Shown piece by piece: positions 1 to 41,683 of a DNA stretch of 64,000 nucleotides. How positions within the stretch are numbered: position 1 is the stretch's first letter; each line of letters opens with the position of its first letter. The notes beneath the pieces are model-generated. The model did no database searches. It was not told the origin of the DNA and saw only the letters and a program-made list of their open reading frames with translations. A program made the position numbers and the translations under genes. The DNA is from an uncultured delta proteobacterium (GTDB lineage: Bacteria > Desulfobacterota > Desulfobacteria > Desulfobacterales > JAHEIW01): assembly GCA_963706575.1 (NCBI GenBank), contig CAVPNL010000004.1, positions 480,001 to 544,000 of the forward strand. Direction: 5' to 3'.

Positions 1-264
<264 letters not shown>

Positions 265-327: not shown

Positions 328-359
328 ATTGCGGATTGCAGATTGCGGATTGCGGATTT
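328..359 (+). repeat. left arm: heptamer tandem array ATTGC(G/A)G x4 + ATTT
   Basis: attgcgg attgcag attgcgg attgcgg attt; inverted partner at 836-866. Confidence 0.95.
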
Positions 360-433
360 AAAAAAGAATGCATTTAGGCATTATTGAAGGATCGGGAGGT
401 TTAATATTCAAGAGAAACAATATGGAGGATCAA

Positions 434-805
434 ATGGGTAATGGAAAAGCGATGAATCCAGAGGTCATGAAAGATAGGACAAAGAAATTTGCGAAACAAA
501 TCATTCTCCTTTGCCGAAAAATGCCTAAAAATCGAGAAGGAAATTTGATTGGAAATCAAATATTCAGATCAGGCTCTTCTGTGGCATCCAACTATCGTGC
601 AGCGTGCAGAGGGAGATCTAAAGCTGAATTCATTGCTAAAATGGGTATTGTAGAAGAAGAGGCTGATGAAACACTATTTTGGTTAGAGGTAATAGAAGAG
701 GTAGAAATCTTTAAGAAAGATTCAATTTCATCTTTGATGCAAGAATGCAATGAGATTTTATCTATAGTAGTATCATCAATAAATACAGCCCGAAAAAGAA
801 AGTAA
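434..805 (+). CDS. four helix bundle protein (23S rRNA IVS protein / bAvd-like family)
   Basis: KDRTKKFA...QIFRSGSSVASNYRAACRGRSKAEFIAKMGIVEEEADETLFWLE pattern; GGAGG at 424-428 supports a start at 434 (452 also possible); visibly more AT-rich than its neighbours. Confidence 0.9.
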   Translation: MGNGKAMNPEVMKDRTKKFAKQIILLCRKMPKNREGNLIGNQIFRSGSSVASNYRAACRGRSKAEFIAKMGIVEEEADETLFWLEVIEEVEIFKKDSISSLMQECNEILSIVVSSINTARKRK

Positions 806-835
806 GGTTATGATACAAATCAATAAATTCGAATT

Positions 836-866
836 AATCCGCAATCTGCAATCCGAAATCCGCAAT
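836..866 (+). repeat. right arm: inverted heptamer array (CCGCAAT-type)
   Basis: aat ccgcaat ctgcaat ccgaaat ccgcaat, the reverse complement of the 328-359 unit. Confidence 0.95.
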
Positions 867-880
867 ACACAAGGTGGATT

Positions 881-2098
881 ATGAAAATTTTGGTGATCAA
901 CTCCGGCAGTTCGTCCATCAAATACCGCCTCTTCGAGATGACCGAAAAAACCGTACTGGCATCCGGTGTTATGGAGCAAATCGGGGAAGCCCAAAGCCGT
1001 CTTACCCATCATGCCCGCAACAGCAAAGGTGAAATGGAAGAAATTGTCAACAGCGAGACTGTTGTCGATCATCAGGCGGGATTTCAGCTGATCGGGGCTG
1101 TTATGGGCGCATCGGGCGCTCTGCAGGATACCCAGGAACTGTCCGGTATCGGTCATCGAGTGGTACACGGCGGCGAAGAATTTAAACAACCAACGCTTAT
1201 CAATAAGAAAGTCATCGACACCATTCGTCGGCTGAGCCCCCTGGCCCCGCTGCACAATCCGGCCAATCTGCAGGGTATTGAAGTGGCCATACAGAGTGCA
1301 CCGCAGGTGCCCCAGGTCGCCGTCTTTGATACGGCCTTTCACCAGTCGATTCCGGTGCATGCCTTTCGCTATGCCATTCCGCAGAATCTCTACGAGGCCC
1401 ATCATGTGCGCCGCTATGGCTTCCACGGCACCTCGCACCATTACGTCACCAAACAGGCTGCAGCTTTAATGGACCGGCCCCTGGACGCCTTAAACCTGAT
1501 CACGCTGCATCTGGGAAACGGTGCCAGCGCAGCTGCCGTAAGAGGAGGTAAAAGTATCGACACCTCCATGGGCATGACGCCGCTGGAAGGCTTGATCATG
1601 GGCACCCGCTGCGGCGATATCGACCCGGCCATCATTTTTTACCTGAAGAGGAAGACCGGTCTGACCAGAGATGAAGTCGAAACCTTACTGAACAAAGACA
1701 GCGGCCTGAAGGGCATCTGCGGTGTCAATGACATGCGGCAAATTGAAGAACTCGCCCAGTCTGGCAATTCTCGGGCACTGCTGGCAATCGAGATGGTTTG
1801 CTACCGCATCAAAAAATATATTGGCGCCTATTATGCCGTCCTCGGCCGTCTCGATGCGCTTGTTTTTACGGCGGGAATTGGAGAAAAATCTCCTCTGATT
1901 CGGGCCGGTGCCTGCCGGGGACTGTCGCATCTGGGCATCGAGATTGACCCTGAAAAGAATAACCGGAAGTCAAAAAAAGCATTTGAGATTCAAACCCGGG
2001 GCGGTACTGTCAGGGTTCTTGTTATCCCAACCAACGAGGAACTCGAAATTGCCGAACAGACCCTGATGTGCATCCAAAAATTACCAAGGCCAGAATAA
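881..2098 (+). CDS. ackA: acetate kinase
   Basis: MKILVINSGSSSIKY, GHRVVHGG, APLHNP, RRYGFHGTSH, PTNEEL motifs. Confidence 0.98.
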   Translation: MKILVINSGSSSIKYRLFEMTEKTVLASGVMEQIGEAQSRLTHHARNSKGEMEEIVNSETVVDHQAGFQLIGAVMGASGALQDTQELSGIGHRVVHGGEEFKQPTLINKKVIDTIRRLSPLAPLHNPANLQGIEVAIQSAPQVPQVAVFDTAFHQSIPVHAFRYAIPQNLYEAHHVRRYGFHGTSHHYVTKQAAALMDRPLDALNLITLHLGNGASAAAVRGGKSIDTSMGMTPLEGLIMGTRCGDIDPAIIFYLKRKTGLTRDEVETLLNKDSGLKGICGVNDMRQIEELAQSGNSRALLAIEMVCYRIKKYIGAYYAVLGRLDALVFTAGIGEKSPLIRAGACRGLSHLGIEIDPEKNNRKSKKAFEIQTRGGTVRVLVIPTNEELEIAEQTLMCIQKLPRPE

Positions 2099-8195: not shown

Positions 8196-8356
8196 GATTG
8201 CGGATTTTAGATTGCGGATTGCGGATTTAAAAACCTATTTCAGCCGGCTTTGCAAAGATTCTGAAATAGAGGCCCAGAGGCAATGAACGCCCACACCGAA
8301 TTATGAAGAAAAGAAGCATCAAATCAGCGAAAATCCGCAATCTGCAATCTAAAATC
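8196..8356. repeat. gene-less inverted heptamer-array element (GATTGCG family)
   Basis: left arm 8196-8228 gattgcg gatttta gattgcg gattgcg gattt; right arm 8331-8356 aaatccgcaatctgcaatctaaaatc; 25/26 complementary over 8203-8228. Confidence 0.93.
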
Positions 8357-10670: not shown

Positions 10671-10746
10671 GATTTCGGAATGCGGATTTCGGATTTTGAA
10701 TGATCGATGTGTCTACTATTTCAATCTGAAATCTGAAATCCGGAAT
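10671..10746. repeat. inverted heptamer-array element (GATTTCG variant)
   Basis: gatttcg gaatgcg gatttcg gattttgaa ... ttcaatctgaaatctgaaatccggaat; starts 3 nt after the fba stop. Confidence 0.88.
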
Positions 10747-10819
10747 TAATTTTTCTCCAATACTCCGGTTGAAACTGGATTAATGTATCTAAATTTTCGA
10801 TTAAATACAGGAGATCCCT

Positions 10820-17386: not shown

Positions 17387-17391
17387 TTATC

Positions 17392-17486
17392 AATTGCGGA
17401 TTGCAGATTTCGGATTGCGGATTTAAAGATCAGAAATTTATGCATTATTTCAAACAATCCGCATTCCGCAATCCGAAATCTAAAAT
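17392..17486. repeat. gene-less inverted heptamer-array element (GATTGCG family)
   Basis: left arm 17392-17427 matches 327-362 at 35/36; right arm 17456-17486 aatccgcattccgcaatccgaaatctaaaat. Confidence 0.95.
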
Positions 17487-41187: not shown

Positions 41188-41206
41188 CTCTCGATGGAGT
41201 TAATAA

Positions 41207-41289
41207 GATTACGGATTGCGGATTGCGGATTTTAAATGCGCGATATGTTTGATCTTACAATCTGCAATCCGCAATCTAAAATCCGCAAT
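41207..41289. repeat. gene-less inverted heptamer-array element (GATTGCG family) inside the pnt operon
   Basis: gattacg gattgcg gattgcg gatttt ... aatctgcaatccgcaatctaaaatccgcaat. Confidence 0.93.
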
Positions 41290-41383
41290 TGATTTTACTC
41301 CAACACTCCTGAACCGGTAGAGCACCAAACATTAATTTATCAAACCAAAGTAATTTAGGATTGCAAACTTACAATCAAGAGGA

Positions 41384-41683
41384 GTGAACATCATGTCCAT
41401 CGGTCTCTTAATCTTTGTCTTTATCCTGGCCATTTTTCTGGGTGTGGAGCTGATTAGCAAAGTGCCGTCGCAATTGCACACCCCGTTGATGTCGGGAACC
41501 AATGCCATTTCCGGCATCACCATCGTCGGGGCGCTCACGGCAGCCGGAACCGGCGCCGACACCGTGGCCTCCATCGTGGGCACGATTGCGCTCATCCTGG
41601 CCACCATCAATGTGGTCGGCGGGTACCTGGTTACCAATCGCATGCTCGCCATGTTTAAACGTAAGGATGAGGGGCAAAAATGA
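41384..41683 (+). CDS. NAD(P) transhydrogenase alpha subunit, part 2 (membrane)
   Basis: LHTPLMSGTNAISG, INVVGGYLVTNRMLAMF. Confidence 0.95.
   Translation: MNIMSIGLLIFVFILAIFLGVELISKVPSQLHTPLMSGTNAISGITIVGALTAAGTGADTVASIVGTIALILATINVVGGYLVTNRMLAMFKRKDEGQK

Follow-up and report, generated by a model that had tools for sequence, protein, structure and literature searches.

REP/REPIN-RAYT systems and MITEs comprise a gene-carrying master form and many gene-less intergenic hairpins, show nesting, and are old, rarely moving residents; in REPIN-RAYT systems the gene encodes an HUH (Y1) transposase and the arms are single palindromes. The intervening sequence (IVS) of the 23S rRNA gene of Coxiella burnetii contains in its loop an S23p ORF, described as decaying, and is closed by terminal inverted repeats of ~30 bp (a 28-bp terminal stem), with heptamer repeats at the 5′ side; the accessible text of its description mentions excision by RNase III and no transposase (PMC4990558). 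The same text gives a pentameric state for relatives in the S23 family, and Avd, the accessory protein of diversity-generating retroelements (DGRs), is described in the available part of a preprint as binding an RNA stem-loop through each of its five protomers (bioRxiv 10.1101/2023.10.23.563531). Additionally, paired tandem hepta-/octanucleotide sites are known from Geobacter metallireducens (PMC2700814), and inverted GGGAATC pairs from Xanthomonas (PMC4692102); in the accessible text of both papers these pairs are intergenic and multicopy, consist of 4–5 tandem 7–8-mers on opposite strands at variable distance, and are proposed as regulator sites or quadruplexes, with no cargo gene named.

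The locus described here is a cassette in which inverted heptamer arrays bracket a four-helix-bundle gene. Like the Coxiella IVS, it encodes an S23p-family protein within its loop, is closed by terminal inverted repeats of ~30 bp that are predicted to be capable of pairing into a long stem, carries heptamer repeats at the 5′ side and lacks a transposase. However, it sits between the protein genes pta and ackA instead of in an rRNA gene, its ORF is under purifying selection rather than decaying, and its arms carry no RNA-pairing signature, whereas the IVS undergoes RNase III excision. The arms resemble the Geobacter and Xanthomonas pairs in location, copy number, unit number and length, opposite orientation and variable spacing, but here the repeated word is tied to the bracketed protein subfamily. 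The protein is basic and has the four-helix fold of Avd and of the S23-family pentamers BT_0352 and Xcc0516; unlike in DGRs, no RT gene lies beside the cassette, and identity to Avd is only 10–12%. The cassette differs from REPIN-RAYT systems in its four-helix-bundle cargo (PF05635 only), which has no known catalytic fold, in the absence of an HUH transposase between the repeats, and in its arms, which are tandem arrays instead of the single palindromes of REP sequences; no target duplication was seen. Dispersed multicopy gene-less copies, a MITE-type trait, are present and are putative derivatives of the gene-carrying form, but the cassette departs from IS and MITE elements in precise ends and target-site duplication. 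Thus, the cassette is set apart from an IVS by its location, and from an IS or a REPIN by its ends and by the absence of a transposase between its arms. A literature search, with light coverage of subscription journals, retrieved no description of four-helix-bundle genes that inverted arrays bracket at junctions of protein genes, although the supplements of PMC2700814 may list such neighbors; likewise, the accessible text of PMC4679880 does not mention a four-helix-bundle protein.

Organization of the pta-ackA Junction

The window, that is, the whole 64,000 nt stretch of DNA that was analyzed, begins with the 3′ end of the phosphate acetyltransferase gene pta (positions 1–264, plus strand; PF01515, PTA_PTB), with its stop at 264. 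On the same strand follow a 63 nt segment (265–327), the left arm, with ~4.4 tandem ATTGCGG units including variant units (328–358), a 5′ spacer (359–433) that contains a Shine-Dalgarno-like GGAGGA at 424–429, the four-helix-bundle gene (434–805) and a 3′ spacer (806–835) that is identical at 28/33 positions to the copy from a distant lineage described below. The right arm (836–866, minus strand) is an inverted copy of the array and ends 14 nt before the start of the acetate kinase gene ackA (881–2098, plus strand; PF00871). The two arms, of ~4.4 units each, are 31 nt long, 90% complementary and separated by 477 nt, and this inverted-array layout is real and beyond chance. The first-pass annotation had read the locus as a small gene bracketed by inverted heptamer arrays that splits pta from ackA with no transposase, integrase or RT, and both statements hold: the layout is as given above, with an ORF of 123 aa, and ORF and profile searches found none of these enzymes within 265–880. 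A scan of the cassette region found no sigma-70-like promoter or terminator, and the only match in an Rfam search, GP20-a (E 0.3), stayed below its gathering score. The G+C content of the cassette gene, 35.5%, is well below that of pta (56%) and of ackA (53%).

A comparison of pta tails revealed that the terminal codons of this gene vary with the junction allele. The 265–327 segment is co-inherited with the cassette in the genus, with 31/61 to 49/62 identical positions in four alleles of the same genus type, and is absent from the distant-lineage allele L062.

The ORF spans positions 368–805, but its likely start is the ATG at 434, behind the GGAGGA motif, which yields a product of 123 aa (pI 9.4), the length of most close homologs. 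The product matches the S23p profile TIGR02436 with 90.3 bits (cut-off 24) and PF05635 with 64.4 bits (cut-off 33.8), and its predicted structure consists of four helices (pLDDT 91). This model matched BT_0352 (2RLD; E 2e-6, TMq 0.83), Xcc0516 (2GSC; TMq 0.79) and, with a Foldseek E of ~0.05, the DGR protein Avd (PDB 4DWL; TMq 0.73); judging from their five-chain PDB entries, the solved relatives are pentamers. A homolog search returned 6569 matches, the close ones carrying the Desulfobacterales label. The DNA of the locus occurs in estuary and sediment metagenomes; a query with this single protein found no relative in viral contigs. In the metatranscriptome run X22, one contig of 183 nt covers positions 433–615 with three differences; such contigs cannot reveal transcription, ends or strand, and it was therefore left out of account.

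Inverted Arms Accompany the Four-Helix-Bundle Family

This genome contains eight genes of the four-helix-bundle family, two of them identical copies, and inverted arms (score of at least 14) flank seven of the eight, vs. only 6/1104 other small genes (90–170 aa, crude gene calls) from the same genome. The arms of these seven genes are built from six different words, of 6 to ~17 bases. The pattern extends to related loci selected by their likeness to the cassette protein, near duplicates included: arms were detected in 135/152, comprising 66/78 from genomes (80 fetched, two dropped because of short flanks) and 69/74 from metagenomes (80 fetched, six dropped), compared with 2/147 shifted windows, 8/78 direct-repeat comparisons and 58/619 cross-locus comparisons used as controls. 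Arms are therefore found at 85–93% of the family loci and at 0.5% of other small genes. These results agree with the proposal from the first-pass annotation that the arms delimit a discrete gene-carrying module, and link such modules to four-helix-bundle genes family-wide.

Each protein subfamily has its own arm word. In a set of 99 armed proteins that were left from 131 after removing those >90% alike, and in which kin are not independent, more similar proteins have more similar arms, a trend that extends across phyla (Mantel r 0.405, p 0.001); likewise, the period of the arms changes six times on the tree, whereas none of 200 shuffles gave fewer than 25 changes. Nevertheless, co-inheritance alone can yield this covariation of word and protein, so it is no proof of recognition.

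An arm-less clade of four-helix-bundle genes (G000:C4:622300-622620 in this genome; L049, L050, L057, L059, and L060) appears to be one conserved locus kept in the genus, and is possibly domesticated. Strong inverted arms also occur around three of the four GxxExxY genes of this genome (G000:C19:8585-8926, C6:266174-266521, and C6:909823-910164), which make up a second class of cargo, the two from contig C6 having tandem arms of 8- and 10-mers. As a rare case of a host gene, what its translation suggests is a ribosomal protein S19-like gene lies between inverted GTTATT arrays (G000:C1:80716-81239). Near-identical duplicates on separate contigs (C20:5958-6275 and C6:747710-748027; C16:47788 and C21:24358) suggest a mixture of strains in the assembly, whose contamination is 6.4%.

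Arrays and Gene-Less Hairpins

Contig C6 contains 40 period-7 arrays with a score of at least 13, vs. none in a shuffle. In the whole genome there are 706 intergenic short-period arrays, 416 of which have an inverted partner within 3 kb, and the arrays reduce to 333 inverted pairs with loops mostly <200 nt. In this list of pairs, where nesting is undercounted, four pairs are nested and none cross. Arrays of the GATTGCG word, that of the cassette, make up 33 pairs that face inward and none that face outward.

The GATTGCG word also defines a gene-less family of ~110 nt with a homologous 28 nt loop (27 matches of at least 55 bits), this loop being present in more than 20 copies. With respect to transcription, 9 of these copies are in sense and 12 in antisense orientation, and they are often nested within outer hairpin arms of the 8-mer GGAGTAAT. 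Gene-less GATTGCG hairpins occur in the window at 8196–8356, 10671–10763, 17387–17486, and 41204–41306, of which at least the second and the fourth belong to the ~110 nt family. The latter is part of a second hot-spot junction (41188–41400), pntA-like and located between transhydrogenase-like genes, as named from their translations; in relatives (L221–L236), the outer hairpin of this junction is empty, is filled by the inner element in one or the other orientation, or is replaced by other arrays.

Alleles of the Junction

A search for ackA in 41 genomes, the relatives being metagenome assemblies with 1–7% contamination, identified 30 loci, with a readable junction in 16 of the 22 genomes of the genus. 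Five of these 16 junctions contain the GATTGCG cassette, which is intact in this genome, G013, and G015, frameshifted in G001, and internally deleted in G016, where the arms are retained. In G012 the junction is occupied by a paralog, 65% identical and with GATTTTG arms, together with a remnant of the right arm of the GATTGCG cassette; the same paralogous cassette is found in a second allele of G015. The junction of G021 holds a collapsed hairpin, and 9/16 genus junctions contain other arrays or hairpins, often nested, without the cassette gene. Outside of the family, G040 and G036 have plain short pta-ackA junctions, whereas G027 has an unrelated four-helix-bundle gene (48%) with arms of 9–10-mers; a search for the family around G027 returned no other genome. 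A distant lineage (L062, L143, L145, and L146) also contains a GATTGCG cassette at the same pta-ackA junction, with a cassette protein of 87% identity, vs. 51–52% for AckA and 74–75% for Pta over full-length matches.

The two nearest relatives by pta and ackA do not contain the cassette. The pta and ackA genes of L142, with a filled junction, and L003, with other arrays, are sisters and only 0.03–0.06 apart, and L143 has genes identical to those of L062, differing solely in extra left-hand arrays; both comparisons indicate that turnover is fast. Near-identical contig pieces from X1, X2, X3, X5, and X9 all contain the cassette. The junctions of relatives, which the first-pass annotation proposed to compare for filled and empty forms, showed filled, broken and replaced alleles, and neither a precise empty allele nor a target-site duplication occurred in the allele series or in the near-identical strain pieces; the left boundaries of the cassette differ between lineages. 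No joined or circular forms of the cassette were found in the contigs searched. Two types of candidates were rejected: contig joints that skip the gene, with sides <30 nt and unrelated letters between them, correspond to other gene-less hairpins rather than to excision, and an X1 contig in which pta is joined to ackA with no cassette between them is ~90% alike, and so comes from a relative. This single junction from central metabolism displays a full life cycle of the cassette: intact, frameshifted, deleted, collapsed, replaced, and likely transferred.

Wherever the context of a locus of the subfamily (at least 79% identity) could be read, the locus abuts pta or ackA, with the exception of L144. 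In L035, L147, and L144, a gene other than ackA is found directly behind the right arm, which suggests that the arms are rearrangement breakpoints. The pta-ackA junctions of L018 and L020 contain GC-rich palindromes, presumably akin to REP sequences, which in L018 lie within heptamer arms.

Possible Roles of the Arms as DNA Sites or as an RNA Stem

We propose that the cassette is an old resident of the junction that is exchanged by recombination and whose arms serve as DNA sites, an explanation that, taken as a whole, we see as evenly balanced between right and wrong. The cassette is a four-helix-bundle gene enclosed by two GATTGCG arrays that face inward, one of many word-specific cassettes and gene-less hairpins found at the gene junctions of this genome; the existence of this class and its history of exchange appear highly probable. 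The mechanism itself is proposed more tentatively, at slightly less than even confidence, from sequence comparisons. The arms would be sequence-specific DNA sites, predicted to be bound by the cassette's own protein, which is basic (pI 9.4) and might bind the arrays as an oligomer, its solved relatives being pentamers. The content of the junction would be exchanged through host recombination, with the conserved 3′ end of pta, the start of ackA and the shared arm words providing the homology, such that the cassette would have been lost, swapped, and, once, transferred to a distant lineage, while gene-less copies would spread at the DNA level, nested into existing hairpins. A bolder version, which we consider rather doubtful, is that an undescribed class of transposase-free, selfish junction elements has four-helix-bundle genes as its autonomous members, and that in this class subfamily-specific recognition of a word of 6–10 bases drives both a homing-like replacement of junction content and the nested spread of gene-less hairpins. 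If true, such a class would account for the fact, noted long ago, that many bacteria have an excess of heptamer arrays between their genes. The association itself connects a very large protein family (6569 matches) with the paired arrays of short repeats in bacterial intergenic DNA, which have lacked an explanation.

The arms are well conserved among orthologous alleles: full-length left arms are identical at 27–31 of 31 positions and right arms at 28–31 of 31 in nine alleles and at 24/26 in a tenth, a level of ~95%, and 27–31/31 identity holds in 10 of 11 aligned alleles. Conversely, there is drift outside of the arms, with identities of 41/72–56/73 in the 5′ spacer and of 77/123–106/123 at third codon positions. 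This contrast points to arms that are constrained or homogenized.

An alternative, raised in part by the first-pass annotation, is that the cassette is an IVS in an mRNA, in which the ~31-bp arm stem forms in the pta-ackA transcript and is cut by RNase III, looping the gene out and altering the stability or stoichiometry of both messages, with the protein binding RNA. The predicted fold of the transcript does include the long arm stem in both the MFE and the centroid structures (z -3.05 vs. 20 shuffles), the gene runs in the direction of the operon with no promoter consensus found in our scan, and the arms often begin at the upstream stop and finish just before the next ribosome-binding site; also, the 23S IVS of Coxiella and the RNA-binding Avd, of similar fold, offer precedents. 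However, the transcribed strand shows no excess of G·U pairs, either in 233 gene-less hairpins (G·U 128 vs. A·C 147) or in 122 cassette arm pairs (G·U 112 vs. A·C 111), and arm mismatches in six orthologous alleles comprise 6 G·A, 5 A·C, 6 G·U, and 2 U·C; this absence is by itself ambiguous, because neutral decay of mismatches would also give no G·U bias. Likewise, cognate arms pair barely better than non-cognate arms with the same word (scores 19.1 vs. 18.1, p = 0.065, n = 24), which, together with the lack of G·U bias, indicates that it is the word that is conserved and not a private pairing. The G-rich arm comes first in 89/89 cases, a polarity that we discarded as a link to transcription, since an inverted repeat reads alike on both strands and is therefore uninformative on RNA. 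Together, the lack of G·U bias, the slight private complementarity and a gene-less sister family that is not oriented by transcription favor DNA sites and recombination over an IVS in the mRNA. The locus thus speaks against the simple form of the latter reading, which is predicted by folding but gained nothing from the pairing tests, and which we consider unlikely. The other role suggested in the first-pass annotation, that of terminal repeats for mobility, fares better in that DNA ends or sites suit the data more than RNA does, but neither an enzyme nor a target duplication was found.

We regard as very unlikely a retro-homing process similar to that of Avd systems, in which the protein would bind the hairpin of its own transcript, a borrowed RT would make cDNA, and the flanking mRNA would guide insertion into the same junction elsewhere. 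The Avd-like fold and the occupation of the same junction in the distant lineage fit this idea, and the genome has a single RT match, of the group II intron type by eye (G000:C4:301306-302598). However, this RT is not linked to the cassette, lying ~178 kb away, with two Y1 transposase matches at ~10 kb from it, the identity to Avd is low and the Foldseek E-value weak (both given above), the gene-less sister family occurs in both orientations, and the contigs contained no joined or circular forms. In total, six Y1 transposase matches occur elsewhere in the genome, none of which any test linked to the GATTGCG word.

Inheritance and Probable Horizontal Transfer

The cassette gene is under purifying selection (dN 0.03–0.09 vs. 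dS 0.27–1.1; dN/dS ~0.06–0.12). Its dS values with respect to G013 and G015 (1.07–1.10) equal those of ackA (1.01–1.11) and a test in the genus did not reject proportionality between the branch lengths of the cassette gene and those of ackA (p = 0.10), indicating an old resident that was repeatedly lost or replaced; in the genus, its inheritance thus appears to be largely vertical. The first-pass annotation had held that vertical conservation at this locus, combined with arrays no more frequent around family members than around random genes, would count against a mobile cassette: the former was partly found within the genus, whereas the latter is contradicted by the 7/8 vs. 6/1104 genes described above. 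An ordinary, vertically inherited accessory gene, whose arrays form locally through slippage and inverted-repeat templating and are randomly lost, would agree with the strong selection, the dS values and the constant vicinity of pta or ackA, but is highly improbable and largely refuted by the enrichment of arms at family loci and by the allele series, in which other cassettes replace the GATTGCG cassette, as well as by the own word of each subfamily, the exclusively inward GATTGCG pairs, and the gene-less family with homologous loops.

For the distant lineage, the terminal branch is much shorter for the cassette gene (0.095–0.098) than for pta (0.54) or ackA (1.30), and a rooted free tree nests its copy within those of the genus (96/94), although the monophyly of the genus copies is not rejected in an AU test (p = 0.34). 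The likelihood test of proportionality is weak alone, because the control comparison of pta with ackA was rejected as well (p = 1e-6). Together, these comparisons suggest that the cassette was likely transferred once between lineages. In L062, the two arms are exactly exchanged with respect to 328–358 and 836–866, with the gene still in the direction of the operon; this could reflect an inversion or a conversion between arms, or chance over the three positions that differ.
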